NCBI GenBank assembly: GCA_011321845.1
Contig: DROQ01000134.1
Coordinates: 10,891 to 74,890 of the forward strand
Reading direction: 5' to 3'
Source of the DNA: Planctomycetota bacterium
Lineage (GTDB): Bacteria; Planctomycetota; UBA1135; GCA-002748355
Length of the DNA: 64,000 bases
In this document: in pieces, positions 16,210-61,600 of the stretch
How the letters are laid out: every line of letters begins with the position of its first letter
How positions within the stretch are numbered: position 1 is the first letter of the stretch
Program-made: the position numbers and the translations under genes
The notes under the pieces: model-generated
Seen by the model: the letters and a program-made list of their open reading frames with translations, nothing else
Databases searched by the model: none
What the model was told of the DNA's origin: nothing

Positions 16210-17778
16210 CTAGTCCTGGTCTTGGTCCGAGGGGAGGGGGTGGACCCTGCGCCCTTCGAAGTAAATGGCCTCGAGTCTGGTCGCCGGGCCAAAGGGGGTC
16301 CCCACCAGGTGGATCAAGTTGGCGGCCCTGCCTTTTTGGATGAAACCCAACTCCTTGTCGACTCCCAGTGACTTGGCGACTTCACCGGTGCAGAGGGAGA
16401 CGAGCTTGGCCAAGGAGATGCCGGCCTGGCGGAAGCGACTCATCCGGAAGGAGAGGCTCGCCAGGGAAGCGGCGTTGTCTCCGGGAACCAGGGCGAGGGG
16501 GACGCCTGCGTCGAGGAGGCGCTTGGCCGGGCAGATGAACCATTGGGTGTCCTCGGCGAAGGCCAGCTGCACGGGGAGGACCACGCGAGCCTTGTACTTC
16601 TTGAGGAGGGGGATGACCTGGTCCAGGGTCTCCCGGGAGAGGCGCGAGTACTTTTGGACCACGGTCAAAGAGATTTTGTAGGTTTCCAGGTAGGAGGAGA
16701 GGGCTCTCAAGCCTTGGAGCAACTCTCCCAGGCCGCCGACCTGGAGGACGAGGGGACGTTTGCCCTCGAGGACTTCTGCGAGGACGACCAGCTTGGGGTC
16801 CTCCTTGGGGGCGGCCTTTTTCTTGGGGGCCGGTTTGGGGGCAGTCTTTTGGGCCGGCTTGGTCCTTGGCTTTTGGGGGGCGGGTTTCGGAGCCGGTTTC
16901 GGGCTTGGTTTGGGACTCGGCTTGGGGCTCGGCTTGGGGCTCGGCTTGGGAACAGGCTTTGGGGTCGGCTTGGGATGGGATCCCTTTCCCTTGCTCGGCG
17001 TCCCTTTGCTCGGGGAGGAAGCCTTGGAAGGGCCGGCTGTTTTGCCTTTTTTGGGGGCAGCCGCCTTCTTGCGGGCTTTGAGGAGTTGGACGGCTTTGTC
17101 GAAGTTCGTTTGGATCGCTTTTTGGGCATTGGAGCCGTAGCCCATGCGGAGCCAGAGGAAGAGCCCGTCTTTGAGCACCCATTTCTTGGGATCGCCGATC
17201 CCGATGCGCAGAACGGATTCTTGCCCAACGATTCCCGTGCGCGAGGGATGGACAGCCACGGTGGTGACGCCTCCCCGGAGGAGGTCTCTCCAGAGGGTGT
17301 TGTTGGGGTTCACCATGGAGCTGGCTTTGGCGGTGGGGTTGAAGGCAAAGCTCCCCGAACTACGGGCGGAGGGTTGGGGCATGCGCCGCCTGCGCCGCCT
17401 GTGGGGGTTGGGTCTGCCTGGCCGTTTCAGCTGGGGCGCCGTGGAGGCGGGGAGGGCAGCGTGGACGAGGCCGGGGATCAAGGCTCCACCTTCGACTCGT
17501 TTCATCGAGGGAGGGATGCGAAGTTTCGCGCCCATGTCCAGGATCTTGCCCTTGCGGACCAGGACCGTCTGGTTCCTGAGGACCTTGCCGCTTCCGTCAT
17601 AGACATCGACGTGGAGGAAGGCGATGTCCTCCGCCTTCTTGTCGAGGACCTTCTCGGCCGGGGTTCGTTTGTCCTTTTGGTCTTCGTCTGCGCGCGTTTT
17701 CGCTCCCAGCCTGGGAGCGAGACTCCCGAGGAGGAGGAGTCCCGTGAGGAGGGAGAGCGTTCGTTTCTTGGTCGACAT
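16210..17778 (-). CDS. Secreted amidohydrolase-fold protein, module 8 (HxH absent), with a long Lys/Pro linker
   Basis: Signal peptide MSTKKRTLSLLTGLLLLGSLA from the ATG at 17778. GALIPGLVHAALPAS in place of HxH. PKPTPKPVPKPSPKPSPKPSPKPSPKPAPKPAP linker. Degenerate C-terminal DKELGFIQKGRAANLIHLVG. Confidence 0.7.
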   Translation of the reverse strand: MSTKKRTLSLLTGLLLLGSLAPRLGAKTRADEDQKDKRTPAEKVLDKKAEDIAFLHVDVYDGSGKVLRNQTVLVRKGKILDMGAKLRIPPSMKRVEGGALIPGLVHAALPASTAPQLKRPGRPNPHRRRRRRMPQPSARSSGSFAFNPTAKASSMVNPNNTLWRDLLRGGVTTVAVHPSRTGIVGQESVLRIGIGDPKKWVLKDGLFLWLRMGYGSNAQKAIQTNFDKAVQLLKARKKAAAPKKGKTAGPSKASSPSKGTPSKGKGSHPKPTPKPVPKPSPKPSPKPSPKPSPKPAPKPAPQKPRTKPAQKTAPKPAPKKKAAPKEDPKLVVLAEVLEGKRPLVLQVGGLGELLQGLRALSSYLETYKISLTVVQKYSRLSRETLDQVIPLLKKYKARVVLPVQLAFAEDTQWFICPAKRLLDAGVPLALVPGDNAASLASLSFRMSRFRQAGISLAKLVSLCTGEVAKSLGVDKELGFIQKGRAANLIHLVGTPFGPATRLEAIYFEGRRVHPLPSDQDQD

Positions 17779-28356: not shown

Positions 28357-28536
28357 ATGCCGATCTATCGTTTCTTATGTGGCACGGATATCTTTGAATA
28401 TGAAATGCCCACCAAGGCCGAAGCCCAATTCCTATGCCTCCAAGAGCATGGAAGCCCCTGCGTGTTCCAGGAGGAGGTGGAAATCCCCCCTGCTGAGGAG
28501 CAGAGTCGTTCCGACCAGGAATCTTCCTCTACCTAG
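28357..28536 (+). CDS. Small hypothetical protein (59 aa); the N-terminus resembles a degenerate FmdB-type zinc-ribbon start
   Basis: AAGAGGA sits 4 nt upstream of the ATG at 28357. Begins MPIYRFLCGTDIFEYEM (compare the MPIYEYRC..C...FE family start) but lacks paired CxxC motifs. Acidic tail. Confidence 0.35.
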   Translation: MPIYRFLCGTDIFEYEMPTKAEAQFLCLQEHGSPCVFQEEVEIPPAEEQSRSDQESSST

Positions 28537-28602
28537 GGCATCTTCTCCACGTAGCGGATGGGAAGCCCTCTCTCCCCGGAAGCAGCCTGAACCTGGGGAA
28601 GC

Positions 28603-31089
28603 ATGGAAATAGAGGGCTATGAAATCCTCGGATCCTTGGGCGCTGGGGGAATGGGGGATGTCTATCTTGCTCGAGATGTCAAGCTGGACCGGATGGTTGC
28701 GCTCAAGCTGCTCTCGGAGAAGCTTTGCGCCCAGGCAGGGTTTCGCACGCGGTTCCTCCGGGAAATCCATGCTCTCGCACGGCTCAAACACGCCAACCTC
28801 GTCCCTGTTTTCGAGGGCGGCATCCATGGAAGAACGCCTCATTATTCCATGGCTTTTGTCCCGGGCCGGAGCCTCCAACAGGTTCTGAGAGTCCTGCGCG
28901 CCCGGCGGGACAGGGGTCTGGAATGGTTTACTCCCGAAGCCCTGGAAGAAGCGGCCGGTCTCCAATTCACGGGCACCAGCTATATCGAAATGATCCTCTG
29001 GTGGATCCTGGGCCTCGCCGACGCCCTCACCCACGCCCACCAGAAAGGAATCCTGCACCTGGATCTCAAGCCCTCCAACGTCATGATCACCCCGGATGGG
29101 ACACCCATTCTCCTGGATTTCGGGGTGGCCCAGATCCTCGAGAAGGGCTGGGGCAAGGGGGAGTTCTGTGGGACCCCCTCCTACATGGCTCCCGAGCGCT
29201 TGCTGAGTCGGGGAAGGCATGTGGGGGAGTTTTCGGACGCTTACAGCCTGGCGGTTCTCTTGTTCGAACTCCTGACTCTGGAGTTGCCGGTTCCCGGGAG
29301 GGGGATGATCGAGCTTTGTCGGAACCACCGGAACGGGGTCCTCAGGGATCCCCGAGACCTCCAGGAGAAGATCCCCGTCGAGCTGGCCCAGATCCTGAGG
29401 AAGGCTCTGGCCAAGGAGCCCGCGGTGAGCTATCTCGATGTCCGTTCCTTCGCGGAGGACTTGACGAAGTTTCGGGATTTCGAGCCCTTGCAGCTTCCGG
29501 GCATTCCTCTCGGCCTGCGTCTTCGGCGCATCGCCCGGAAATGGCGCCGCCCTCTTCTCCGCGGAGCGGGGGGACTGGTTTTGGGGGCTTGCCTCCTTCT
29601 GCTCTTTTTCTATGGGGCCCGATGGAGAAAAGGAGCTAGCGAGACGGAGAGGGAGGCGGAGGTCCAGGCTTACTCCTTTTTGAGTATGGCCAGGAAGGCT
29701 TTGGAGAGCCGGGATCTGAGGGGGACCCAACATTTTCTCCAGCTTGCCCGGGGGATGTCCAAGGATCCCAGGCTTGTGGAAGGGGTCGCCGGCCTCGAAA
29801 CGAGCCTGGCCGCGGAGAGGGACCAGGCCATCCGCCTGCTGAGGAACAAGGTTTTGGCCAAGGACGCTGGAGGAGTCGGCGAGCTGGTCCAGCGCCTGCG
29901 CCCCCTGATCCAGGGGGATCCCCATTTGCGTCCTCTCCTGCTCCAGGGAATGGCTCTTGAGCGAGAAAGGAGGGAGAGGGACTGGCTCCTTTCCAAGGAC
30001 GAGGAAGTTCAGAAGGCGGCGCTTTTTCGGCTCGCCTGCGATCTTTCCAAGGGGGTTGTCAGCGAGGGGGCGAGGCTCCTGGCCTTTCGCAAAATCCTTC
30101 AGGAGGCGCGTCTTCCCGAAGAAGCGTTGCTCTGTCTTTGGGCCGGGGGTTGGAGTCGATGGAAGGGAGAGCTGCGGGTGGGAATCGGGCGATGGGAGGA
30201 TCATGTCCAGCTCACCCTCCTCCTCCTTCTCGCCTATGACCCCAAGGAACCCTTCGCGACCTGGGCGAGGAGGCAGAACAAAAAGTATTTCGACTTCAAG
30301 TGGAAGGACAGCAGGATCCAAAGGCCCCTTCTTCCGGGCCTGGCGACCTATCAGCGAGAGGCCAGAGCGCAGGGAGCCGAGGCTCTCTACCAAAAGTTGC
30401 GTGGTTTCGGGCGCTTCTTGCGCTTCTACCAGAGAGGGGCTTTTCAATGGCCGGGGATTGGATTCGCGGTGTATCGGGCTCCCCTGTTCTATGGGCTCCA
30501 GCTCCGTCTCGCCTGGGGGCTCCCACTCGAGGAGAGAGAGGGGCTGGAGTTGCTCCGAATCGCCCCTCTGCGGCTCAGGCTCAAGGTCCTCTGGGCCCTT
30601 TTTTGGTCCCGAAGGGGTCCCCCCTCTCCAGAACTTCTGGAACTCCTCGGCTCCCGTTGGAAGGGAGGAATGAACCGGGATGAAGGGGAAATGCTCTCCA
30701 TCCTCGCCCATTGGAACCCAAGCTCCGCTTGGGCTTTTTTTCAACGATTCGGTTTGAACAAGGGGTTGGATCCTAGGGAGTTTGCGTTCTTCTTGAGTGC
30801 GATTCCACCGGCCAAGACCGAGTCCTTTTGCAAGGAGGTTCTTGGGGATCTGGCCTCTCCCAGGGTCTACCGGGAGGGGGTTCAACGGTTCCATGCTGGA
30901 TTCAAAGCGCCCTCTCTGGCTTCGCGGAATTTGGAAGGAGGTGATCCCCGGATCCTGGCGGATGCGCTCGCCCTCATTCGAGCGGCGGATGTGAGCGACA
31001 TTCCCATGCTGAAGCGCCTCTCCGAAAGTCCCTTCATGATGATTCGAGAAGAGGCCTCGAAGCGGATGCGCGCTCTGGAGGGGAGGTGA
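28603..31089 (+). CDS. Membrane Ser/Thr protein kinase (non-RD: HLD catalytic loop) with a large helical C-terminal domain
   Basis: LGAGGMGDVYLA (G-loop), VALKLL, GILHLDLKPSNVMI, LLDFGVAQ, GTPSYMAPE. TM segment GGLVLGACLLLLFFYGA. C-terminal HEAT-like helices. Confidence 0.9.
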   Translation: MEIEGYEILGSLGAGGMGDVYLARDVKLDRMVALKLLSEKLCAQAGFRTRFLREIHALARLKHANLVPVFEGGIHGRTPHYSMAFVPGRSLQQVLRVLRARRDRGLEWFTPEALEEAAGLQFTGTSYIEMILWWILGLADALTHAHQKGILHLDLKPSNVMITPDGTPILLDFGVAQILEKGWGKGEFCGTPSYMAPERLLSRGRHVGEFSDAYSLAVLLFELLTLELPVPGRGMIELCRNHRNGVLRDPRDLQEKIPVELAQILRKALAKEPAVSYLDVRSFAEDLTKFRDFEPLQLPGIPLGLRLRRIARKWRRPLLRGAGGLVLGACLLLLFFYGARWRKGASETEREAEVQAYSFLSMARKALESRDLRGTQHFLQLARGMSKDPRLVEGVAGLETSLAAERDQAIRLLRNKVLAKDAGGVGELVQRLRPLIQGDPHLRPLLLQGMALERERRERDWLLSKDEEVQKAALFRLACDLSKGVVSEGARLLAFRKILQEARLPEEALLCLWAGGWSRWKGELRVGIGRWEDHVQLTLLLLLAYDPKEPFATWARRQNKKYFDFKWKDSRIQRPLLPGLATYQREARAQGAEALYQKLRGFGRFLRFYQRGAFQWPGIGFAVYRAPLFYGLQLRLAWGLPLEEREGLELLRIAPLRLRLKVLWALFWSRRGPPSPELLELLGSRWKGGMNRDEGEMLSILAHWNPSSAWAFFQRFGLNKGLDPREFAFFLSAIPPAKTESFCKEVLGDLASPRVYREGVQRFHAGFKAPSLASRNLEGGDPRILADALALIRAADVSDIPMLKRLSESPFMMIREEASKRMRALEGR

Positions 31090-33872
31090 GCGGCCCTTCT
31101 CCGATACCCACTCCCTTTGGGAGTTGGAAAAAGGGTCCCTTCCATCTGGGACCCTGGGTTCTCCTTGCCCTTGTTTCCAGGAACGATCGATTCTTGATGT
31201 TCGAGGCCAAAGACAGGGCAATGGATCGTCGGGTCTTTCTTGTCTTTTCCTGGGAGGGGGAGCCCGCCTTGCTGGATCTCCACCAAGCCTGGGGGAAGTT
31301 TTCAGGACCTCCCCTTCCCCGAGTTCTCCAGCTTGCCAAGGTGGATGGACCCGAAGGGGAGAGCCTCTCCTGTTTGGTCCTCGAAGGAATGCAGGGAGTG
31401 GCCTTCCCCCCCCGACTCAAGAGAGCCCGGTGGATCGAGTTGGGGCAGACCCTCTGCCTGGCGATGCAGGAACTCCTGGATTCGGGTCTGGGATACTCCG
31501 AGTTTTCATCCCAGGATCTTCGCATGGATCGGGAGGGGGAGGTTCTCCTGTTGCCTCCCTTTCCTTCCTCTGGGGCTCAAAAGGGTGGGGGGCTTTCCCA
31601 GCATTCCGGGCGCCGGGCGGTGAGAAGCATCGCCGGGCTGTTGCTTCAGGGACTCAAGGGATCCAAGCAGAGGGACCTGGGAGAGCAGGGAAGGGACTTG
31701 AAGGGGCTCCCCGCCGATCTTCGCTTGGTGCTGCGCAATTGCTTCAGGGGTGAGGCTGGGACGAGATACGCAAATCCTCGGCAATTGGGATGGGAACTGG
31801 GGAGGATTCTCCGTCATGAGCCGGTCCCGAATCCCGGGCGGAATCTGAGGAAGGGACTGGAACGGATCCTGGGGGCGATCCTGCTTGTCGCGGTTCTGCT
31901 CCTTTTTGCCCAGGGAGCCTTGCGCCTTCTCCAGGCTCGCAGCCAGGCTTTGTCCCTGGAGGCCCAGAGGATCGAAAACTTCGGTTTGCTCCTGGGTGAC
32001 TTTCGCGCGGGTTTGGAGGAGGGATCCTTCGAGAGGGCGGCCAAGCTCCTGGAAAATCTGGAGGCGATGAAGCTTCGGCAGGGGGAGAAGCTTCTCAACC
32101 AGGCGAAGGGAGATTTTCAAAGGAAATTGCGCGAACACTTTGGAGAACTCTTTCTTTTGGCCGAAGCGAAACCCGATTTGAAGCGGATTCGGACCTTGGC
32201 CCAAGGCTTGTTTTTCTTGCGCTGGGGTCCTTCCCATCTATGGCCCAGGCCTGGAAAGGAATTCCTGCAAAAGATCCAAAAGGTGCGAAGGCAGGCGGAG
32301 CACGCGAGCCATTTCCTCCAGTCCTTCACTTCGCTTCCCACCTTCCTGGAAGGACAAACCCTGCGGCGGGTGATGAGTCCGGATCCTTTGCGGAAACAGT
32401 TCCAGCGTCTTTGTAGGGACAAGCCCGACTGCCTCCCCTATGCAGAACAGGCCCTCATGGAGTTGAGAAAGGGCTTGGACCCGAGATCCTCCCTCCTTCT
32501 TCTGGAAGTGTTTCTGGCCCTCCCCGAGGACCGACGGCTTGAATGGTTGCAGCAATGGCTGCCCGAGGCGTCGACCGAGGAAATCCTTTTTGTCTGTCTT
32601 TCCTCGGCCTTTCGGGAGCGGGAGCGGTCCCTGCCGATTCTCGACAAGGTTCTCGATGTTTTGGAAAAGAGATCGTCCGAGGTCCTTCAGGGGAGAGACC
32701 TTTTTGGAGATGAGGTCCACAACCGAGTCTCCAGGGCGCTTGTGACGGTCTATTCCGCCAAGGAGACCTGGCCTTTTTGGAAAAAGCATTATCCCCTTTT
32801 CGAACCCCTTTGCTTCGGCTACCCCCGAACTCTGGGATCGTCCCTTCTCCTCATGCGGGGGATCCTGGACCCCAAGGGAACGGAGAAGCGTTGGCACAAC
32901 TGGGTGCGGAGGGGGGACCTCAGGGTCTTCTTCCACCCGGAGCTTTGCACGGATCCCAGGCTCCAGGCAGAGGCCGAAGGCCTGGTTCGTCTCTGCGTCC
33001 GCCCCGCTTCGAAGAGCGTCTCCGTGCCCGCCTATTGGAGCAAACCCGGCTTTCGGAATTTGGCCCCCTTCGCCCTCCTCTACTTTTTTTCACGGAGCCC
33101 ACAGCACTTTCCCCTGCAGGATCCCCAACTTCGATCTTTGTTCTGGGTCAAGGTCTTCGAGAGCTTTTCCGAAGGGGGATTTACCTTCAGGTCCTTCCCA
33201 ATCGTGAAACGTTTCCCCGAGAAGGACTGGGCTCTTCCCCTCTTTCGCCGTTTCCTCCGGCTCAATGGGGATTCTCATATGGCCCTTTGGCAATTCTATT
33301 TCCAAGGAGAGGGCCGCTATCTTCTCCTGGACTGCCTGGTCCAAAAGCGCGCCTTCCCTTTCCTGGAGGACCATCTCGGGGAGATCCTGGAGTCGGACCG
33401 TTTCCCCGCGCAAAAGTTTTGCCTGAGCCTGTTGCTCAAGGCCCGCCAGGCCGGATTGCTTTCCGAGCTTTGGGGTCCTCGCTTACGCTCTTATCTATCG
33501 AGAGTCGCGAGCCCCTACCTTCGATCCCTTGCCCTGGGATGCTTGGAGGAAGTGGGCGCCCTGGAGATCCAAACCTTTCTTGAGCTTCGCTCCTCTTCGC
33601 TGCCCACGGTTCGGAAACGGGCTTGGACCTGGCTCCTTGAGGCGGGGCATCTGGAGAAAGCCTGGGACATCCTTGGGGGGAGCGAGGTCCCCCCCAAGCT
33701 TCTGCCTCCCCTCGGAGACTTGAAGATGGTCGAAACCCTCTTCCAGCGCCTGGCCCAAACTTCGGCCCGCGGTGGGGCTGCCCAAGGGGAGGGAGGTCCC
33801 AAGGAGGTTCCCATCCTCTCCGCCAGGAGAGCCCATTATTTCAAAGCCCTTGAATCCTTACGGAATCGGTGA
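31086..33872 (+). CDS. Membrane pseudokinase-like protein with a long HEAT/ARM-like C-terminal domain
   Basis: GTG start overlaps the kinase stop (GTGA at 31086-31089). The ~250-aa N-terminal region has kinase-like spacing, but I see no recognisable G-loop, VAIK Lys, HRD or DFG (GYSEFSSQDLRMDREGEVLLLPPFPSS). TM segment ILGAILLVAVLLLFAQGAL. The start codon is uncertain. Confidence 0.65.
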   Translation: MSGPSPIPTPFGSWKKGPFHLGPWVLLALVSRNDRFLMFEAKDRAMDRRVFLVFSWEGEPALLDLHQAWGKFSGPPLPRVLQLAKVDGPEGESLSCLVLEGMQGVAFPPRLKRARWIELGQTLCLAMQELLDSGLGYSEFSSQDLRMDREGEVLLLPPFPSSGAQKGGGLSQHSGRRAVRSIAGLLLQGLKGSKQRDLGEQGRDLKGLPADLRLVLRNCFRGEAGTRYANPRQLGWELGRILRHEPVPNPGRNLRKGLERILGAILLVAVLLLFAQGALRLLQARSQALSLEAQRIENFGLLLGDFRAGLEEGSFERAAKLLENLEAMKLRQGEKLLNQAKGDFQRKLREHFGELFLLAEAKPDLKRIRTLAQGLFFLRWGPSHLWPRPGKEFLQKIQKVRRQAEHASHFLQSFTSLPTFLEGQTLRRVMSPDPLRKQFQRLCRDKPDCLPYAEQALMELRKGLDPRSSLLLLEVFLALPEDRRLEWLQQWLPEASTEEILFVCLSSAFRERERSLPILDKVLDVLEKRSSEVLQGRDLFGDEVHNRVSRALVTVYSAKETWPFWKKHYPLFEPLCFGYPRTLGSSLLLMRGILDPKGTEKRWHNWVRRGDLRVFFHPELCTDPRLQAEAEGLVRLCVRPASKSVSVPAYWSKPGFRNLAPFALLYFFSRSPQHFPLQDPQLRSLFWVKVFESFSEGGFTFRSFPIVKRFPEKDWALPLFRRFLRLNGDSHMALWQFYFQGEGRYLLLDCLVQKRAFPFLEDHLGEILESDRFPAQKFCLSLLLKARQAGLLSELWGPRLRSYLSRVASPYLRSLALGCLEEVGALEIQTFLELRSSSLPTVRKRAWTWLLEAGHLEKAWDILGGSEVPPKLLPPLGDLKMVETLFQRLAQTSARGGAAQGEGGPKEVPILSARRAHYFKALESLRNR

Positions 33873-35943: not shown

Positions 35944-38601
35944 TCAGGTCGCGACCAGGTTTACGAGCCTCCCGGGGACATAAATCTCCTTACGGAGGGT
36001 TTTTCCCTCGAGTTGGGACTTGACGGCTTCCTTGGCTTTGCTGAGCACAAATTCTTTCTCCGCGTCCTTGGGGATCTTGATCCTCGCGCGGACTTTGCCC
36101 AGGACCTGGACCGCGATCTCGACCTCCTCGTCCACGAGGAGGGCGGGGTCGTAGGAGGGCCAGGGTTCATAGGCGAGACTCTCGGTGTGGCCCAGTCGCT
36201 CCCAGAGTTCCTCGGCGAGATGGGGGGCGAAGGGAGCCAGGAGCAGGAGGAAACGCTCGGCCTGGGTTCTTTCCAACTGGTCCACTCTTTTTGTGGCTTC
36301 GTTGACGAAGACCATCATCGCCGAGATCGCAGTGTTGAACCGCATCCCTTCCAGATCCTGTCCGACCTTGGCGATACAGCGGTGCAGGGCCTTCTCAAGC
36401 TCGGGATCGGGCGTGCCCGGATTCGCGAGATGGGGCCGAAGGGGGGGCGGGTTCTCCTTCCCCTCAGGGACGAAGAGGCGCCAGACCCTCCCCAGAAAAC
36501 GATGTACTCCGGGGAGGTCGTCGGGGTTCCAGGGGCAGCTCGCTTCGAGGGGGCCCATGAACATCTCGTAGAGCCGCATGGTATCCGCCCCCCAGTTCCG
36601 GATGACATCATCGGGGTTCTCGACGTTCTTCAGGGACTTGGACATCTTGGCGACGATGCGTTCCAGTTCCTCCCCTGTTTCCTTGTGGTAGAACTTGTTT
36701 CCTCGTTCCTCTGCCATATCCACGGGGACGAGGGCGCCGCGGGAATCCTTGTAGGCATGGCTGAGGACCATCCCCTGGTTGAAGAGTTTTTGGAAAGGCT
36801 CTTTGGTGTGGACGAGACCCAGGTCATAGAGGACCTTGTGCCAGAAGCGGGCGTAGAGCAGGTGCAGGACAGCGTGCTCGGCTCCTCCGACATAGAGGTC
36901 TACAGGACCCCAGTATTGTTCGGCCTCCTTGGACCAGGCTTCCTTGTCGTTGTGGGGATCCATGAAACGCAGGTAGTACCAACAGGAACCAGCCCATTGC
37001 GGCATCGTGTTGGTCTCCCGGAGAGCAGGTTTCCCTGTCTCGGGGTCCACCGTCTCCAGCCAGTCTTTGGCCTTGGAGAGGGGTGGAGCGAAGGTTCCAC
37101 TCGGTTTGAAGTCGTCCATTTCGGGGAGAGTGACCGGCAGATCCTCGTCCCGAACCCGTTTGATGGTCCCGTCCTGCAGGTGGAGGATGGGGAAGGGTTC
37201 CCCCCAATACCTCTGCCTCGAAAAAAGCCAGTCCCGCAGGCGGTAGGTCACCTTGGCCTGACCCAGTCCCTTGGACTCCAGCCACTGGGTCATCTTGGCC
37301 TTGGCCTCGTCGGTGGGCAGGCCATCCAGGGAGATCTCGGCGTTGGAGGAATGGACGGCAACTCCTTTTCCCACGAAGCACTCGAGGATCTCTCCGTCTC
37401 GCTCGACTCTCCGGACAAAGCCCTTCTTCTCGGCCTCCTTGGGATCCTTGGGTCGCTCTCCGCCATCGACGACCTGGAGGATCTTCAGCCCATATTGCAG
37501 GGCGAAGTCGAAGTCCCGCTCATCCCCTCCCGGGACTGCCATGATGGCTCCGGTCCCATAGCCCATGAGCACGTAATCTGCGATCCAGATCGGGATCCGC
37601 GCCCTTGGATCGTCCTCGGGGAAAACCGGATTCAGGGCATAGGCCCCCGTGAAGACCCCTGTTTTGTCCTTGTTGAGTTCGGTGCGGGCGAGATCCGTCT
37701 TGGTCGCCGCCTCCCTCTGGTACGCCGCGACCTCTTCTCTTTGCTCGGGGGTGGTAATCTCGTTCACAAGAGGATGCTCCGGGGCCAGCACCATGTAGGT
37801 CGCCCCAAAGAGGGTATCCGGGCGGGTAGTGAAAACGGCCAGTTCCTCCTCCGGCCTGTCCGCCAGGCGGAACCGGACCTCCGCCCCCTCGCTGCGCCCG
37901 ATCCAGCTGCGCTGCATGGCCTTGACCGATTCCGGCCAGTCCAGTTCCTCCAGGTCCTCCAGCAGTCGGTCCGCGTAGGCCGTGATCTTGAGCATCCACT
38001 GTTTGAGCGGCTTCCGCTCACAGGGGTGGTCTCCTCGCTCGCTCCGTCCGTCGATGACTTCTTCGTTTGCGAGGACGGTGCCCAGAGCGGGGCACCACCA
38101 GACGGGAACTTCGGCCTGGTAGGCCAGCCCCATGTCGAAGAGCCTCGTAAAAATCCATTGGGTCCAGTGGTAGTATCGGGGATCCGTGGTCGCGATCTCA
38201 CGGCTCCAGTCATAGCTGAAGCCGAGGCTCTTCAACTGCTTCTTGAAGCCTTGGATGTTCTTGGAGGTCGTGACCGCAGGGTGGGTCCCGGTCTGGATCG
38301 CGTATTGCTCCGCAGGGAGTCCGAAACTGTCCCAGCCCATGGGATGGAGGACGTTATAGCCTTGCATCCTTTTGAACCGGGCGAGGATGTCCGTCGCGGT
38401 ATAGCCCTCCGGATGCCCCACATGCAACCCTGCCCCCGAAGGGTAGGGGAACATATCGAGGATGTAGAACTTGGGTTTGTTCGGGTCGAAGGAGTCTTCT
38501 CCCGGATTCGGAGCTTTGAAGATCTCTTTCTCTTCCCAAATCTTCTGCCACTTCGCCTCAATGGCCTGGGGCACGTACTGGTTTCTCTGTTTCTCTTCCA
38601 T
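35944..38601 (-). CDS. leuS: Leucyl-tRNA synthetase
   Basis: [26 protein letters not shown] (HIGH region), KMSKSLKN (KMSKS), and full-length collinearity with bacterial LeuS. I chose the ATG at 38601 ([19 protein letters not shown]) because the upstream 65 codons of the track ORF translate the repeat region. Confidence 0.95.
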
Positions 38602-38671
38602 AACGATGGGCGTCCTACGATTGAACCCGCGTGTTTCAAGGCCTAAACCATACATCCCTCCCCAACCCCCC

Positions 38672-38792
38672 CCCCACGCTTTTCCCCAGAAACCCCAGCA
38701 GATAACCCCAGTAGGGAACGCCTCCAGGCGTTTCATGTAGAAAACCCCTTCAGGGGTTTTAAGTAGGAAACGCCTCCAGGCGTTTCCTATCC
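38672..38792 (+). repeat. REP-like array (left): 2 half-units plus 3 GTAG-headed palindromic hairpins
   Basis: GTAG-GGAACGCC-TCCA-GGCGTTTC, GTAG-AAAACCCC-TTCA-GGGGTTTT and GTAG-GAAACGCC-TCCA-GGCGTTTCC at 38711-38787. They are preceded by CAGAAACCCCA and GCAGATAACCCCA half-units. Confidence 0.85.
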
Positions 38793-38813
38793 CCAACTTC
38801 CACTCCCCCCCCC

Positions 38814-39278
38814 ATGTCCTATATTCCCCCCATGTCCAAAACCGACTACATCCCCCGCCCCATGCCCCCCTGGGAACTCATCTTCTGGCTCCTCCTCGAC
38901 GCCGCCATCCTCTACCTCCTCATCCGAGTCGGCCTCACCCACCCCGACGCCCGCGGGATCGGCACCCACGAACAGCTCGGAAGACCCCCCTGCTCCTGGC
39001 CCATCCTCTACAACATGCCCTGCCCCACCTGCGGGGTGACCACCGCCACCGCCCACCTCCTGCACTTGCATCCGATTCGGGCCTTCCTCACGCAGCCCTT
39101 TGGAATGGCCTTGGCGCTCAGCGCGGTGGGGATGGTTCTGGGTTCGATTTGGTTTGGAGTTCGTGGGGAGAGTTTGTTGTTTCGGTTGTCGCGGTGGAAT
39201 TGGGGTTTGGTTTTGCTGGGGGGGGTGGTGTTGTTGTTGGTTTCGTGGTGGTGGAAGGTCGCGACTTGGGGGGGGTGA
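38814..39278 (+). CDS. DUF2752-like small membrane protein
   Basis: [25 protein letters not shown] matches the CPxCGxTR-type motif of DUF2752. 3-4 hydrophobic segments. The start could also be a downstream Met. Confidence 0.7.
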
Positions 39279-39280
39279 GG

Positions 39281-39436
39281 GGGAAACGCCTGGAGGCGTT
39301 TCCTACTTAAAACCCCTGGAGGGGTTTTCTACGCAAAACCCCTGGAGGGGTTTTCTACTTGAAACGCCTGGAGGCGTTCCCTACTGGGGTTTCCTACTGG
39401 CGTTTCCTACTGGGGTTTTCTGCGGGTGTTTTCTAG
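39281..39436 (-). repeat. REP-like array (right, inverted relative to the left array): 4 GTAG-headed hairpins plus 4 half-units of 13 nt
   Basis: The minus strand reads GTAGGGAACGCCTCCAGGCGTTTC, GTAGAAAACCCCTCCAGGGGTTTT (twice) and GTAGGAAACGCCTCCAGGCGTTTCC. These are preceded by GCTAGAAAACACCC, GCAGAAAACCCCA, GTAGGAAACGCCA and GTAGGAAACCCCA. The array overlaps the last ~18 codons of the adjacent GT gene. Confidence 0.85.
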
Positions 39437-40616
39437 CGGGGGGGGCTTGGAGGGCTTGGAGGCGGGTTTGGGTGATGGATTGCCAGGAGAGTTGGGTTTC
39501 GGCGTAGGTGCGGGCGGCTTTTCCGAGCTTGGTTCGTTTTTCGTGGCTCTCCTGGAGGGGGAAGAGGAGGTCGAGGAATTCTTGGACCTGGGAGAAGAGG
39601 AGGATGCCCCGGGTTTCACCGCTCTCGAAGCCGCGGGCTCCGAAAGGGGTGCTGAGGACGGGGAGTCCGGAGGCGAGGTATTGGCAGACCTTCTGGTTCA
39701 TGCCGCTCCCGCTGAACATAGGGTTGATCGCGCAGTCGGCGGCTCGGAAGCAGGGGAGGAGATCGTCTAAGGGGCCGGTCTCCAGGAGGCGGGGGGACTT
39801 GGAGGGGCGAGGGCAGACCGACCCGGCGACGAGGAAGAAGCTGCGGGCATCGCTGAAAGGATGAAGCTCCTGGTGGATGTAGGCGAGGGCTTCTTTGTTG
39901 GGATGGTGGGCCGAGCCCGTGAAGAGGATGACGTGGACGTCCCGGGGGATCCCCAGTTGTTTTCGAGCTTGAAGTCGCTCTTCCTGGGTGGCGGGGCGGT
40001 AGGCTTCGATGTCCACTCCGGGCGGGCTGATCCAGGTGGGGCCACCGGGGCTGCCAAAGCACTCCTCGAACTGCCTGGCTTCTCCCTCATGGTAGACGAA
40101 GCGGTGATCGGCCTCCCTCCAGGCTCGGCCTTCGACTTCCTTGGCCTGGAGAAGGGCTTTGCCTCCCCCCCGAAGGAGGAGGGCGGATTCGTGAAGATCG
40201 GTTTCGAGATTGTGATGGATCAAGAGGATCGGGCCACGAACATGGCGCTTCGCGAAGGCAAAGGGCCAGGGGCTCTCCACGATGGCGGCGTCCGCCTCCT
40301 GCAAGAGGTTGCGGACGGTGGGAGGAGCCTTGCGCTCCAGCAGCCGGGAAAGCTGAACAGGAGGAAGTCGGCCTGTTCCACGGAGTTTGCGGTTCAGCAG
40401 GTCCCAGAGGGAGAGGACGCGGTGTTCCCGGAGCCCGCCTCCGATGTCCTGCTCGAAGGAGTGGAAATGGAGGGGTTCAAAGGAGCGGAGCCCCGCGGTG
40501 ACGAGGGAAACCTCATGGCCCAGGGAGAGCAGGCGACGAGCCGGCTCGAGGACGGCGATGTGGGCGGCGGAGCGGGGGGGGAAGACGCCGAATGGGGCCA
40601 GGACGACGAGCTTCAT
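39381..40616 (-). CDS. Glycosyltransferase family 1 (GT4-like)
   Basis: MKLVVLAPFGVFPPRSAAHIAVLEPARRLLSLGHEV (N-terminal GT-B). FTGSAHHPNKEAL...INPMFSGSGMNQKVCQYLASGLPVLSTPFGARG (C-terminal domain). ATGA overlap with the upstream gene (40616/40613). Confidence 0.85.
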   Translation of the reverse strand: MKLVVLAPFGVFPPRSAAHIAVLEPARRLLSLGHEVSLVTAGLRSFEPLHFHSFEQDIGGGLREHRVLSLWDLLNRKLRGTGRLPPVQLSRLLERKAPPTVRNLLQEADAAIVESPWPFAFAKRHVRGPILLIHHNLETDLHESALLLRGGGKALLQAKEVEGRAWREADHRFVYHEGEARQFEECFGSPGGPTWISPPGVDIEAYRPATQEERLQARKQLGIPRDVHVILFTGSAHHPNKEALAYIHQELHPFSDARSFFLVAGSVCPRPSKSPRLLETGPLDDLLPCFRAADCAINPMFSGSGMNQKVCQYLASGLPVLSTPFGARGFESGETRGILLFSQVQEFLDLLFPLQESHEKRTKLGKAARTYAETQLSWQSITQTRLQALQAPPARKHPQKTPVGNASRKPQ

Positions 40617-48875: not shown

Positions 48876-48976
48876 GCGGAACGCTTCCGTGCAGCATGCT
48901 CTTGCGAAGAACGTTCTTGGGAAGAACCTTCCTGCGCAGAACCTTTCTGCACGGAAACTTTGCAGAACCTTTCTAC
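48876..48976 (-). promoter_or_regulatory. Array of ~7 tandem 13-15-bp dyad-containing repeats in the leader of the radical SAM gene
   Basis: Plus-strand units: GCGGAACGCTTCCGT, GCAGCATGCTCTTGC, GAAGAACGTTCTTGG, GAAGAACCTTCCTGC, GCAGAACCTTTCTGC, ACGGAAACTTTGC, AGAACCTTTCTAC. The array lies 20-120 nt upstream of the ATG at 48856. Confidence 0.6.
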
Positions 48977-49112
48977 GCCGAACCCAGCCGGTTCCGCGCA
49001 GAGGTTGTGACCATGGAGGGCCTGAAGCACTCATTCCCCCCACCCTGGGAGTATACCGGGGTCCTCCCTTCGCGGCAGAGCTTAGAAGCTTTTCTTTCGA
49101 AAGATTTGCAAC

Positions 49113-57813: not shown

Positions 57814-57846
57814 AAAAAGCCCAGCCCCTTCAGGAAGGGGCTGGGC
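57814..57846 (-). terminator. Rho-independent terminator of ELW paralog 3
   Basis: Perfect 12-bp stem GCCCAGCCCCTT-CCTG-AAGGGGCTGGGC followed by TTTTT on the minus strand. Confidence 0.85.
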
Positions 57847-57886
57847 GGATCCACTTGGTGTCACCGAAGGTTTTCCGCTCGGAAAC

Positions 57887-60800
57887 TCAATTCCCGAGAG
57901 TGCTGAAGACTCCGTTGCTCATCTCAAAGGCAACGGGGGAGAGGAGGATGTACCAGGTCTGGAAGCCGACATGGATCCCCTTGAGGGAGGGATCGTTGGA
58001 GATGGTGTAATTCCGGGTCCAGGAGCCGGTGGGGGAGACGTTGAACGTGGATATGGGCATATAGAAGGCGTTCGGGTTGATGTAGCTCATACAATTGGGG
58101 CTGAGGGGCGGGATGGGGGAGGCGTTGTTGTTCACCTGGACTCCCAGGAGTTGGATGGCGACCGCGCCGGGTTTGGCACCCTTGCCGTGAAGGCTCATTG
58201 TGCTTCCGATGACTGGGTCGGTGCCGACCAGGATCGGGAAGCGGGTCGCAGACGTGCTGCAGGGATGGCCGACGGGCTTGCTGTTGGCGCCGGGGAAGTA
58301 TTTGAAGAGTTCGGAGCCCTTGGTTGGGTGCGTGGCCTGCATCATGAGTTGACCGTTGGAGAGCACCAAGTTGTTGGGGGAGCTGCTGGCACTTCCAGGC
58401 CGTACCTCGGGAACCAGGATGGTTCCTGCTGGGGTTCCATCCGTCCTCCAGAGCTCCTTTCCGTTCGTGGGATTCGTGGCTGAGAAGAAGATGTAGCGGG
58501 AACCTTTTCGGGTGAACTGGGAGGGATAGGAAGAGCCTGAACCGCTGGAGATGTCCTTCAGGAGGCTGGTCCCGGTGGAGGTTCCATCGGAGACCCAAGG
58601 CTCGAAGCCGTTGGTCCCATCACTTGCGCGGAAAACGAGCTTGCCGTTCAATGCGGTGAGATAGGAGGGAGATGAGGAGGAGGATCCACTGCGGATGTCC
58701 TTGACCAACATCGTTCCGGCGGCTGTGCCGTTGGAGACCCAAAGTTCGGTGCCCTTGGTCCCATCGTTTGCGGTGAAGAAAAGTTTGTTTCCAATCGCCG
58801 TGAGGAAGGAGGGGGTGGAACCGGAGGTTCCGGAACGGATGTCCTTGACCATCGTGGTTCCCGTGGAGGTTCCGTCTGTCACCCAGAGTTCGTATCCTGC
58901 TCCTGTCTTTTTGGCCCGGAAGTAGAGCTTGCCACCCATGGCCGCAAAATAGGAGGGGTTGGAGCTGGCGGAGCCCGGGTTGATATTGGACACCATGGTG
59001 GTCCCCGCGGTCGTCCCATCGGTGACCCAGAGCTCGGTGCCGTTGGAGCTGTCGTAGGCGGAGAAGTAGACCTTACCCTTCCAGAGGTAGAAGCCGCTGG
59101 GATAGCTGCTGAAGGACCCCGAACGAATATCCTTGAGTATCATGGTCCCGGTCACGGTTCCATCGCTGATCCAGAGCTCGTAGCCTTTGGTGCCATCGTT
59201 GGCCCTGAAGAGGATCTTGTTTCCGAAGGCGAACAGGTTCGAAGGACTGCTGCTGGAGGCTCCAGGGTTGATGTTCTTGACCATGGCCGTGCCGGCGGGG
59301 GTCCCGTTGGTGGCCCAAAGCTCGTAGCCGTTGACCCCGTCATTGGCGCGGAAGAAGACCCGGTTTCCTACAATGGTAAGATAGTTGGGGCTCGAGCCGG
59401 AGGAGCCTGCCCGGATATCCTTGAGGAGGGCGGTCCCTGCTGTGGTTCCATTGGAGGCCCAGAGTTCGGTTCCATGGATTCCATCGTTGGCCACGAAAAC
59501 CGTTCGGTTGAACTTGTCGGTAAGGTTGGTGGGAATGGAGCTGGCGGTTTTGCCTAAAGTGTTCGCAATGTCTTTCAGAAGCGTGGTCCCTGCGGCGGTG
59601 CCGTTTGTCACCCAGGGCTCATAGCCGTGGGTCCCGTCATTGGCCCGGAAGTAAACCTTGCCAAATGCAGCGAAGAGATAGAAGGGGGAGGAACTGAGGC
59701 TGCCGGAACGGATGTCCTTGAGCAGGCTGGTCCCAGCGCTCGTTCCGTCGGTAACCCAAACCTCGTTCCCCTTCGTGCCGTCATTCGCTGTGAAAACCGC
59801 CTTGCTGGTTGAAATCGGGGTGATCCAATTCAGATTGGGACTGAAGCTTCCTGTGCGGATCTCCTTAACCAAGGTGGTTCCGGTCCCGGTGCCGTCACTG
59901 ATCCAGAGCTCGGAGCCATGGGTGGTGTCTCTCGCCTGGAAGAGGAGCTTGGAGCCAAAGGCGGTGAGCCGGCTGGGGTCGGAGCCGAAAGATCCGCTGC
60001 GGATGTCCTTGACCAGGACCGTTCCAGCACTTGTCCCGTTGGTGACCCAGAGCTCGTTCCCCGTGGTTCCATCGTTTGCCTGGAAGTAGACCTTGCTCCC
60101 GACCCTTACCAGGTTGCTGGGGTAGGAGCTTAAAGATCCGCTGCGGATGTTCTTGACCAGTACCGTTCCAGCGCTTGTCCCGTCGGTGGCCCAGAGCTCG
60201 GTGCCGGTGGCCGGGGAAGAAGCGGAAAAGTAGACCTTGGAACCCATGACTGCCATGTAAGCAGGATTGGAGCCAGGCGATCCCGCATAGATGTCCTTGA
60301 CCATGGTGGTCCCGGCGGAAGTGCCATCCGAGATCCAAAGCTCCTTGCCCTTCGTGCCGTCGTTGGCGCGGAAGAGGATTTTGTTTCCGAATGGAGTGAT
60401 GTTGGAGGGGAAGGAACCACTTGGACCGGAATAGATGTTCTTGACCATCGTGGTCCCCGCGGAGGTCCCGTCGGTCACCCAGAGTTCGTAGCCGTTGATT
60501 CCATCGTTGGCGACGAAGAAAACTTTGCCTCCTGCGGCTGTTAGGTTGTAGGGCGAAGAACTCGGTGAGCCTGAACGAATGTCCTTGACCATCGAGGTTC
60601 CCGCTGAGGTTCCGTCGGTGATCCACAGTTCCTGCCCGTTGGTTGTATTCCTAGCAACGAAGACAACCTTGCTTCCCAACCTGGTGAGGTAGGAGGGGTT
60701 GGAACCGGAGGTTCCGGACCGGATGTCCTTGACCAGGACCGTGGACGCGGAGGACCCACCTGTCTTAAAGAGTTCGCTCCCAGTGGTGGGAGTCGAAGCC

Positions 60801-61492: not shown

Positions 61493-61526
61493 AAAAAAGC
61501 CCAGCCCCTTCAGGAAGGGGCTGGGC
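61493..61526 (-). terminator. Rho-independent terminator of ELW paralog 4
   Basis: The stem-loop sequence is identical to that of the paralog 3 terminator (GCCCAGCCCCTTCCTGAAGGGGCTGGGC), followed by T6. Confidence 0.85.
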
Positions 61527-61600
61527 GGATACCTCAGGGGATCCTGAGGGTTTTCAGCTCGGATCCCTCAGGGAATCCTGAGGGATTCCGCTCGGAAAAC

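Follow-up and report, generated by a model that had tools for sequence, protein, structure and literature searches.

Paired GTAG-headed hairpin arrays beside a planctomycete DUF2752 gene, probable members of a dispersed REP-type family

The two hairpin arrays enclosing a DUF2752 membrane-protein gene in the DNA stretch under study (64 kb, termed the window) are copies of a dispersed, lineage-specific and probably mobile repeat family of the GTAG-REP type. A likely overall account is that both arrays represent separate arms of a GTAG-tagged, REP/BIME-like family with a RAYT-type mode of spread. Dispersal, presence/absence polymorphism, covariation of the hairpins, effects on the ends of open reading frames (ORFs) and residence of the enclosed gene were observed, and confidence in these is high.

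Architecture of the arms and their hairpins

The left arm is located on the + strand in the spacer upstream of leuS (leucyl-tRNA synthetase, 35944..38601, − strand; Pfam tRNA-synt_1_2, tRNA-synt_1 and Anticodon_1), which is divergent from the DUF2752 gene (38832..39278, + strand). A C-rich tract with a C10 run (38660..38675, + strand) lies directly 5' of the arm; the run varies in length and is C9 in the assemblies L062 and L063. It is followed by a stretch holding degenerate 13-nt half-units only (38676..38710, + strand; ACGCTTTTCCCCA, GAAACCCCA and GCAGATAACCCCA), including a period-13 row of TRF at 38687-38711. The three full units of 26 nt (38711..38789, + strand) are arranged head-to-tail and consist of GTAG, an 8-bp stem and a TCCA or TTCA loop. 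They read GTAGGGAACGCC-TCCA-GGCGTTTC at 38711, GTAGAAAACCCC-TTCA-GGGGTTTT at 38737 and GTAGGAAACGCC-TCCA-GGCGTTTC at 38763, which corresponds to the subtype order GGAACGCC, AAAACCCC, GAAACGCC. An inner C-rich tail, CCCCAACTTCCACTCCCCCCCCC (38790..38813, + strand), closes the arm and is likewise found 3' of solo arms in L064 and L065.

The right arm (39281-39436, − strand) comprises four full 26-nt units arranged head-to-tail (39281..39384, GTAG at 39384, 39358, 39332 and 39306) in the subtype order GGAACGCC, AAAACCCC, AAAACCCC, GAAACGCC, and four half-units of 13 nt (39385..39436), two of them exact (GTAGGAAACCCCA, GTAGGAAACGCCA) and two degenerate (GCAGAAAACCCCA, CTAGAAAACACCC). The half-units are translated within a C-terminal extension of the neighboring glycosyltransferase (GT), which opens with a C8 run directly 5' of the arm (39437..39446, − strand; G8 on the + strand). 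At the other end, the inner C-rich tail (39267..39281, − strand; G8-TGA-G5 on the + strand) overlaps the DUF2752 stop codon. C/G homopolymer runs flank both arms on each side, a feature absent from the first-pass annotation of this DNA. The GTAG-headed palindrome arrays in inverted orientation around DUF2752, which that annotation had described, are plainly visible in the sequence. Half-units, reported there for both arrays, do occur in both, but exact copies are restricted to the right arm.

Within each arm, one orientation and a 26-nt spacing are maintained throughout, and the single switch of orientation falls between the arms, which are complementary over 97 nt (89%) and 78 nt (90%). TRF returned period 26 with 3.0 and 3.9 copies and period 13 with 3.3 copies. 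With up to one mismatch, GTAGRRAACSCC matched 13 times in the 64-kb window (2.6 expected), and 11 of these matches are at the two-array locus; for the palindrome pattern, all seven matches (0.07 expected) are located there. No full unit was found elsewhere in the window by either search. The z-scores for DNA folding were −7.7 for the left arm and −7.1 to −8.2 for the right arm.

A set of 50 units from the window, L079 and the loci of metagenome Ga0256832 has an invariant GTAG, except for one ATAG, a stem of 8 bp and a TCCA loop. Among the 29 distinct units, 98.7% of the stem cells are paired, and compensatory double changes were found in four of the eight stem pairs, a value reached by none of 500 shuffles; the units had been pre-filtered for at most two stem mismatches. 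G.T wobble pairs occur on the GTAG strand only. The stem is maintained by compensatory changes among the subfamilies represented in this pre-filtered set.

Copies at unrelated loci

A metagenome scan with the exact pattern retrieved nine contigs of Ga0256832 with two to three units apiece. Their similarity to the window is confined to the arrays, and their arms adjoin unrelated housekeeping genes. In the vent population of the window, a compact two-arm element is located upstream of aspS on contig L079 (approx 11995-12250), which shares ENA samples with the window's contig and with L063. Approximately 80 kb of this population (window plus L079) contain at least two loci with four arms. The first-pass annotation had considered the units REP-like and GTAG-tagged, and this reading, here for a dispersed family, is borne out by copies at other, unrelated loci of this population and of a second metagenome, by the covarying stems and by the stop codons that GTAG lends to flanking ORFs. 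A unit scan of viral contigs gave no matches. With a looser pattern (NNNN loop) applied to genome contigs, a related family with GTGG and GTAG heads surfaced in the Planctomycetota MAG JALSSW01; among the matches listed, those of the looser pattern were mostly single chance matches inside coding sequences (CDS).

Two forms of the repeat are distinguishable. Compact two-arm elements (L079, L070, L072 and L066) have inner units and central hairpins, which the window arms do not; the latter are of a form with a solo arm and a C-rich tail, as in L064 and L065. The best match of the left arm is L066 (92%) and that of the right arm L073 (91%), and neither window arm is nearer to the other than to copies at other loci. 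The order of subtypes within an arm is kept across loci, while the number of right units differs between assemblies (three in L079 versus two in L070).

Assembly noise, or a tandem duplication that arose locally on either side of the gene with no dispersed family behind it, would be compatible with the restriction of the units to one locus within the 64-kb window, with short contigs ending inside arrays (L063, L070 and L080) and with the homopolymer and unit-number differences between assemblies. Such a local origin is extremely improbable in view of three independent assemblies from two samples that agree on the structure, the conservation of subtype order across loci and the presence of like-ordered arms beside at least nine unrelated genes.

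Resident genes, empty sites and rewritten ORF ends

The enclosed ORF encodes a DUF2752 protein, as previously annotated (PF10825, E 5e-9). The position 38814 given for its beginning is where the ORF opens; the probable start codon is at 38832. DUF2752 was also rightly described as the only + strand gene in its block, which extends over approximately 9.4 kb (33.8-43.2 kb of the window, gene calls of L062). Among the longest ORFs of the window, many were orphans in the Pfam search, and the region 28432-31221 has a kinase called on the + strand in L062.

The divergent leuS(−)/DUF2752(+) arrangement is kept in equal relative orientation in the relatives L074 and L075, neither of which has arrays. 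The leuS product (885 aa) has an equal gene and arrangement in both, the DUF2752 orthologs (73% and 71% identity) likewise adjoin leuS without arrays, and L075 also retains the convergent GT gene, 28 nt downstream of DUF2752. Since the relatives keep leuS/DUF2752 at this locus without arrays, DUF2752 is evidently a long-standing resident. The aspS spacer, occupied in L079, is empty in the relatives L083, L084/85 and L086. No target-site duplication is recognisable, the spacers of the empty-site relatives being too diverged for a precise boundary.

According to the first-pass annotation, the repeats might have captured the gene as cargo or might delimit an invertible segment. The arms would then be terminal inverted repeats of one element, a REPIN-like doublet or MITE, carrying DUF2752, or sites of a switch inverting it. 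The inverted, 89–90% complementary arms (over up to 97 nt) do enclose exactly one ORF, the only + strand gene of its block, and compact two-arm relatives exist. A single element or switch is nevertheless very unlikely. The gene and its neighborhood are conserved without arrays in L074 and L075, in the latter including GT, and more distant DUF2752 homologs were found in unrelated contexts, also without arrays. Both window arms have the solo form with its C-rich tail rather than the inner units and central hairpins of compact elements, and they are not each other's closest relatives. The window, L062 and L063 (three assemblies, two independent samples) are colinear and have one orientation, with seven differences between the window and L062, two of which fall in the left-arm region. 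No recombinase or transposase was detected in the neighborhood by Pfam, gene calls or profile HMM. The presence of DUF2752 without repeats in relatives is an outcome that the first-pass annotation had itself named as refuting, and the cargo and inversion proposals are both unsupported. A composite transposon or MITE is no better match: the supposed cargo stays in the relatives and the ends alone are missing, again with no recognisable target-site duplication. CRISPR arrays and integron attC sites were rejected as well, the units being 2 nt apart without spacers and the enclosed gene being resident. A replication origin or terminus, considered for a GC-skew dip at 38.6–39.1 kb, was dismissed; to the left and right of the dip the skew is positive, and synteny is conserved without the arrays.

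The right arm affects the ends of both adjoining genes. The last two glycine codons and the TGA of DUF2752 lie in the G-run that forms the inner tail of the arm, and the protein ends in WGG* here versus WH* or WK* in the orthologs. The convergent GT4-family glycosyltransferase (39381..40616, − strand; Pfam) has as its stop codon the TAG (39381-39383) of the outermost GTAG of the right arm. Its residues 1-390 align without gaps (71% identity) to the 390-aa ortholog of L075, ending at the ortholog's own stop, whereas residues 391-411 (39384-39446) are 21 extra amino acids encoded by the C-run and the half-units. The earlier statement that the right array supplies the C-terminus of this protein was thus confirmed. 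To judge from these alignments, the right arm has overwritten the stop codons of both DUF2752 and GT.

Similar effects are seen at other loci. Of eight arm-adjacent ORFs, five have the TAG of a GTAG as their stop codon, and one ends at a degenerate GTAA. At gene 3' ends, the GTAG strand was the sense strand in all cases examined, and the 13/26-nt phasing places TAG in all three frames. The consistent sense orientation and the three-frame stops would also be expected if the arrays were selected by the host, either with the 12-nt motif GTAGGAAACGCC as the site of a DNA- or RNA-binding protein, used as direct (13-nt) or inverted (hairpin) copies, or with the hairpins as transcript-end modules (terminator, stabiliser or insulator of closely packed genes) maintained and multiplied as useful. 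The strand-specific, G.U-compatible wobble is in line with this, stemless half-units would fit binding sites for monomers, and E. coli REP/BIMEs are known to bind IHF and gyrase and to stabilise mRNA (background in PMC2817692 and PMC3733652). Host selection as the origin of the arrays is unlikely, considering that the orthologous spacers of five relatives do without them and that two arms (the left arm of the window and the L079 element) are located upstream of genes rather than at 3' ends. Canonical terminators, which this genome does use (57819-57846 and 61499-61526), have a long GC stem followed by a T-tract, both of which are missing from the hairpins. Scans for sigma-70 promoters and intrinsic terminators found nothing in the arrays, and Rfam at a permissive E-value returned sub-threshold noise only (miRNA models, CsrC). 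Function and mobility of the arms are not mutually exclusive.

Relation to known repeat families and possible mode of spread

Families GTAG-1 to -24 of GTAG-REPs, including those of Rhodopirellula baltica, Planctomyces spp. and Opitutus terrae, were described by Di Nocera et al. 2013 (PMC3733652), where such repeats with RAYTs are reported for Planctomycetes and Verrucomicrobia and the TAG of GTAG as stop of flanking ORFs is a hallmark. The RAYT (TnpA-REP) transposases of GTAG-REPs are treated in Nunvar 2010 (PMC2817692) and Messing 2012 (PMC3479197). The window units share with GTAG-REPs the 5' GTAG beside a short palindrome with a stem of 6–9 bp and a short loop, subfamilies differing by compensated stem changes with tolerated G-T pairs, a clustered or dimeric arrangement, an extragenic or ORF-end position, a host among the PVC bacteria, and the provision of TAG stops and REP-encoded C-terminal extensions for flanking ORFs. 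The GTGG heads of the related JALSSW01 family resemble those of O. terrae GTAG-20. In contrast to GTAG-REPs, the window family is almost exclusively head-to-tail in a strict 26-nt register, such tandems being rare among the published GTAG families (PMC3733652). Its arms also differ in their outer runs of stemless 13-nt half-units, which have no described counterpart, in a fixed subtype order, in a C-rich tail at the arm end, and in having no linked RAYT so far.

The BIMEs of E. coli (mosaic REP clusters) likewise combine several REP subtypes in a set order, joined by conserved linkers; however, BIMEs alternate REP orientation, whereas the window arms are uniform and fall outside that definition. 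The compact elements of L079, L070, L072 and L066 resemble the REPINs of Pseudomonas fluorescens (Bertels & Rainey 2011, PMC3116915, as cited in PMC3733652), as they are inverted REP sets able to fold, around a short centre, into a single long hairpin. A REPIN consists of two single, inverted REPs approximately 70 nt apart that replicate as a unit, while solo arms are common in the window family. The window pair itself is not a REPIN; its arms are separated by approximately 490 nt and a resident gene and are not closest relatives. Like IS200/IS605-family elements and their non-autonomous derivatives (PATEs), the units may have hairpin ends that are handled in single-stranded form, next to a conserved tetranucleotide used for cleavage or as target. 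They differ from these elements in being far shorter and in showing no transposase gene, left/right-end asymmetry or defined ends. Taken together, the arrays fall within the GTAG-REP/BIME kind already described, and their architecture of head-to-tail units and half-units is unusually regular.

Each arm consists of outer 13-nt half-units (GTAG plus the 5' stem half), three to five head-to-tail 26-nt units and a C-rich tail. In the proposed course of events, one arm would have inserted into the divergent leuS/DUF2752 spacer and another into the very short convergent DUF2752/GT spacer, replacing both native stops; DUF2752 now ends with WGG-TGA within the arm tail, and GT runs for 21 codons through the C-run and half-units to the TAG of GTAG. 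An inverted arrangement would be expected half the time from two independent insertions. The arms may have spread in trans as single-stranded hairpin DNA by a Y1/HUH (RAYT-type) transposase reading the hairpin and the GTAG, and the resident hairpins would serve mainly as 3'-UTR structures and as three-frame stop for the abutting gene. The strict phasing might arise because each unit re-creates a GTAG site for the addition of the next one.

Mobilisation of the arms by a RAYT-type enzyme is a plausible but tentative part of this scheme. In the window and the population loci (approximately 100 kb), no RAYT/Y1 gene was found by regex, tblastn (queries 4ER8 and the RAYT of L035) or profile HMM. RAYT-like proteins of PF01797 are very abundant in Planctomycetota (more than 6000 unlinked matches). 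The L035 RAYT, encoded 170 nt from a GTAGGAAACGCC match, was rejected as cognate enzyme because this match lies inside the neighboring CDS and the gene is flanked by other hairpins (AAAGGTG-ACATC-CACCTTT).

Growth of the arms may differ from classical REP/REPIN spread, since head-to-tail tandems are rare in published families and the half-units have no described counterpart. An improbable variant would make the arms a self-extending phased array instead of classical RAYT-moved REPs. Here, an existing GTAG would be the specific site beside which a new 26-nt hairpin unit, or an abortive half-unit of 13 nt, is added, following a target rule like that of IS200/IS605, and natural ...G-TAG stop codons would serve as entry points. 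Such a target tetranucleotide would lead to phased head-to-tail growth beside GTAG and to entry at ...G-TAG stops; with site-specific addition, arms would abut ORF ends in sense and in exact register, and outer half-units would decay with distance. The module would be retained for its three-frame stops and 3'-UTR hairpins amid very short convergent spacers.

The locus reveals no new gene cassette, switch or defence system, and the lesson for annotation is modest: contigs end at the arrays, and the 3' ends of nearby ORFs are repeat-derived. The dispersed GTAG-REP-type family provides a well-resolved case from an uncultured deep-sea, hydrothermal-vent planctomycete, whose phylum has so far yielded few descriptions of repeats of this sort. 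Filled and empty sites can be clearly compared, and the two convergent genes illustrate concretely how repeats rewrite gene ends. Its regular architecture of 13-nt half-units and 26-nt units in fixed order makes it a natural system for studying how REP clusters grow. If the arms do extend themselves at GTAG, they would display the birth of REP clusters together with a transposition-coupled rewriting of gene 3' ends.

Hairpin arrays on both sides of the DUF2752 gene

Two arrays built from one kind of short unit are located at 38660-39446 of the window. The left array, on the plus strand, contains three full units of 26 nt (starting at 38711, 38737 and 38763), in each of which GTAG is followed by two complementary 8-nt stem arms around a TCCA loop (TTCA in one unit) and by a linker of 2 nt. 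The right array, on the minus strand, contains four full units with their GTAG at 39384, 39358, 39332 and 39306. The arrays of GTAG-headed units described in the first-pass annotation were confirmed with minor corrections by these coordinates as well as by repeat periods, pattern counts and arm complementarity. Half-units of 13 nt, which had been reported for both arrays, were indeed found before the full units on the left (38676-38710, plus strand) and outside of them on the right (four copies, 39385-39436, minus strand), but exact copies are restricted to the right array, where two of the four are exact (GTAGGAAACCCCA and GTAGGAAACGCCA) and two degenerate; those of the left array are all degenerate. 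Tandem Repeats Finder returned period 26 (3.0 and 3.9 copies) and period 13 (3.3 copies), and the arms are complementary to each other by 89% over 97 nt and 90% over 78 nt. The 12-mer head pattern was matched 13 times in the window (2.6 expected), 11 of these at the array locus, where all seven matches to the palindrome pattern (0.07 expected) are also found. Single-stranded DNA folds of the arms gave z-scores of -7 to -8, and, by thermodynamics only, RNA that covers both arms could fold into a panhandle of some 95 bp. An Rfam search gave no match near the gathering score, and a promoter and terminator scan detected nothing inside the arrays.

At the various loci, arms are composed of several parts in a set order. 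The half-units are outermost. Inward of them come a GGAACGCC unit, in which the GTAG strand has a G.T wobble, then between one and three AAAAC(C/G/A)(C/T)C units and, innermost, GAAACGCC or GAAAAGCC. Solo arms, found in the metagenome loci L064 and L065 and on both sides in the window, have a C-rich tail after the inner unit. Compact elements of approximately 220-260 nt (L079, L070, L072 and L066) carry two different central hairpins and then an inverted arm, and L067 and L068 are inverted doublets lacking the central hairpins. In 29 distinct units, gathered with up to two stem mismatches allowed, which has to be considered for the pairing figures, 98.7% of the stem cells are paired. Compensatory double changes are present at four of the eight stem pairs, and each of the stem cores CGC, CCC, CGT, CAC and AGC has its matching partner. 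Covariation at this level was reached in 0 of 500 shuffles, and slid controls collapsed.

Runs of C on the GTAG strand bracket both arms (C10 at 38666 and C9 at 38805; G8 at 39268 and 39438 on the plus strand), and 5 of the 16 C/G runs of at least 8 nt in the window lie within the 780 nt of the array locus (38666-38675, 38805-38813, 39218-39225, 39268-39275 and 39438-39445). Such runs also occur in the flanks of L064, L072 and L073; in most arms, 5-10-nt C runs directly precede the first unit on its 5' side and recur in the tail that follows the last unit, and one run varies in length among assemblies (C10 or C9). They may be part of the element, reflect a target preference or stem from slippage of AAAACCCC half-units. 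The GC skew at 38600-39450 changes its sign halfway through the DUF2752 ORF (about -0.42 to +0.43), the 5' half being C-rich and the 3' half G/T-rich, a pattern absent from lower-GC orthologs. Together with the flanking runs, this renders the 0.8-kb segment compositionally quasi-palindromic; the skew flip may simply be strand bias of the surrounding minus-strand block.

Other repeats in the window are of different kinds. A perfect palindrome of 28 nt with a 12-bp stem, GCCCAGCCCCTTCAGGAAGGGGCTGGGC, is found in two identical copies (57819-57846 and 61499-61526), each preceded by an A-run on the plus strand, as in canonical intrinsic terminators on the minus strand. Both copies (flanks 57847-57900 and 61527-61612) lie just past two large paralogous minus-strand ORFs (57887-60988 and 61601-63877) and are thus ordinary terminators used by the genome, quite unlike the GTAG units. 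The 61.5-kb copy is followed by a small hairpin array of period 34 (CCTCAGGG-GATC-CCTGAGG type). The same ORFs host 144-nt tandem repeats (59972-60274 and 63689-63974; about two copies, 73-80% matches), which probably encode 48-residue repeat domains; a Pfam search gave no match for either ORF. Tandem repeats at 16792-16974 (periods 12/24/30, GGGGCT/CTTGGGG-type motif) and 48900-48984 (period 15) have no sequence relationship with the GTAG units. Most long ORFs tested throughout the window had no Pfam match at E <= 1e-5, some of the picks being on the wrong strand in this 62% GC DNA; Pfam-orphan proteins are also numerous among independent gene calls at 28.8-49.3 kb.

Gene order and gene ends at the arms

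The arrays are located between leuS (35944-38601, minus strand) and a GT4-type glycosyltransferase gene (39381-40616, minus strand) and enclose the plus-strand DUF2752 ORF (Pfam DUF2752, E 5e-9; start probably 38832). Gene calls of the near-identical contig L062 bear out that DUF2752 is the sole plus-strand gene at approximately 33.8-43.2 kb, and include neither a recombinase nor a transposase there. The closest DUF2752 homologs (73% and about 70% identity) are divergent from leuS in the relatives L074 and L075, the latter keeping the convergent glycosyltransferase gene 28 nt downstream of DUF2752. No GTAG units were found in L074 or L075, and more distant homologs in other contexts are likewise devoid of arrays. 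At the aspS locus, three relatives (L083, L084/85 and L086; 52-55% GC compared to about 61% in the array-bearing population) have short, empty spacers. Since relatives lack arrays at both loci, the arms are lineage-specific insertions. Judged by this gene order, DUF2752 is a resident gene, and the earlier suggestion of a captured cargo gene is contradicted by the leuS/DUF2752 pair kept without arrays in L074 and L075. An invertible segment, the other reading proposed for the inverted geometry, is disfavored as well, since the window, L062 and L063 are all colinear and no recombinase was called in the block. The left arm is most similar to L066 (92%) and the right arm to L073 (91%), compared to only 89-90% between the two, and both belong to the solo type. 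The simplest reading of these similarities is two independent insertions on either side of DUF2752, in which case the inverted orientation is a 1-in-2 outcome.

The right array was also correctly held to encode the C-terminal end of the glycosyltransferase. Compared to its 390-aa ortholog in L075 (71% identity, gapless up to the final residue of the ortholog), the protein has 21 extra residues (about 18 codons had been estimated), which are encoded by the C-run and the half-units, and the stop codon is the TAG in the GTAG of the first full unit. DUF2752 ends with WGG-TGA within the G-run tail, where orthologs finish with WH or WK, and the ancestral 28-nt spacer is no longer recognisable in the window. 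Both convergent stop codons have been replaced by the right arm. Elsewhere, the TAG of the outermost GTAG is the stop codon in five of eight arm-adjacent ORFs, with a degenerate GTAA in one of the eight. In all of these cases, the ORF has the GTAG strand as its sense strand. Successive TAGs reach all three frames, as neither 13 nor 26 is divisible by 3.

Dispersal of the family

Part of L062, a 212-kb hydrothermal-vent metagenome contig (ENA ERZ940665), matches the window at 99.97% identity; for L063, a 925-bp contig from another sample (ERZ27262687), the identity is 99.5%. In the left-arm region, both contigs depart from the window in the same two ways, with C9 for C10 and TCCA for the loop TTCA. 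When metagenome contigs were scanned for the exact pattern, ten loci were retrieved; nine of them, from JGI metagenome Ga0256832, have two to three units each and resemble the window in the arrays only. A viral-contig scan for the unit found none. Neighbours of the dispersed arms are unrelated housekeeping genes (nucleoside transporter, rubrerythrin, NAD synthase, TatA/B, YigZ-like protein, thioredoxin and ATP synthase). The ATP synthase epsilon subunit encoded beside the L070 element is 100% identical to a protein on L079 (104 kb, ENA sample of the window's contig) and is also encoded on L080, from the sample of L063. On L079, a complete element occupies approximately 11995-12250, in the spacer that separates aspS from a divergent gene of 469 aa, so that one population has two loci or more within about 80 kb. 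Both array-bearing divergent spacers of this population (the L079 spacer and 38602-38831 in the window) are directly upstream of aspS and leuS, respectively; with n=2 only, this proximity to aminoacyl-tRNA synthetase genes may be coincidence.

Four contigs of the Planctomycetota MAG JALSSW01 (L009; L011, 400-770; L057, 7350-7700; L059, 3440-3640) carry a related family, in which the heads are GTGG/GTAG, the half-units direct and the hairpins different, so that the half-unit-plus-hairpin design is not unique to one lineage. Its direct half-units are GTGGAAAACCCC and its hairpins AAAACCCC-TCCG-GGGGTTTT, GAAAGCCC-TCYG-GGCTTTC and AAAACGC-TAGA-AGCGTTTT; a linker of about 45 nt is conserved, and inverted half-units are located at the far end here too.

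Relationship to GTAG-REPs and RAYT transposases

The GTAG-tagged REPs described for over 80 species, among them Rhodopirellula, Planctomyces and Opitutus, have short loops and 6-9-bp stems; their subfamilies show compensated changes, G-T pairs occur, and O. terrae has a GTGG variant (Di Nocera et al., PMC3733652). They form clusters and gene-flanking arrays, with copies within or at the ends of ORFs, the GTAG termini explicitly supplying TAG stops of flanking ORFs, and RAYT gene products are the presumed mobilising enzymes (PMC3733652). By its sequence features, the family of the window, L079 and Ga0256832 is of the GTAG-REP kind. It differs from the published families in three respects: its units follow one another head-to-tail, an arrangement described as rare among those families, it has stemless half-units, and the order of its subtypes is fixed. 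Strictly speaking, it is no BIME, since orientation does not alternate, and the pair of arms in the window is not a REPIN.

No Y1/HUH gene was found by motif regex in the window or any locus of its population. Over the window and population loci, no RAYT was detected by tblastn with E. coli TnpA-REP (PDB 4ER8) or a planctomycete RAYT from L035, nor with a profile HMM from 120 PF01797 proteins on all six-frame ORFs. The L035 enzyme, a RAYT-like Y1 transposase of 225 aa (850-1615; HUH motif HWHLLI; YIEANP) from the Planctomycetota MAG FK4.bin106, is bracketed by inverted copies of the 19-nt palindrome AAAGGTG-ACATC-CACCTTT, a classic REPtron-like unit. It was rejected as the enzyme of the window family because its flanking hairpins belong to a different, unrelated repeat family. 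More than 6000 PF01797 homologs (E <= 1e-10) of it were retrieved from a protein collection, many from Phycisphaerae/Tepidisphaeraceae MAGs and many on very short contigs, and none of them is attributable to the window's genome. We infer from family resemblance that a RAYT would be the mobilising enzyme.

Overall, the arrays are real and non-random, and represent a dispersed REP-type family, with insertions to the left and to the right of a resident gene. Going by the resemblance to known families, the most likely mechanism would be RAYT-type single-strand mobilisation of the arms, with phased growth beside GTAG. Thereafter, as position and orientation suggest, the arms may have been tolerated or have become mildly useful as hairpins at 3' ends and as stops that act in any frame. 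The GTAG-REP kind is already known; particular to the family in the window is its tidy, somewhat unusual architecture.
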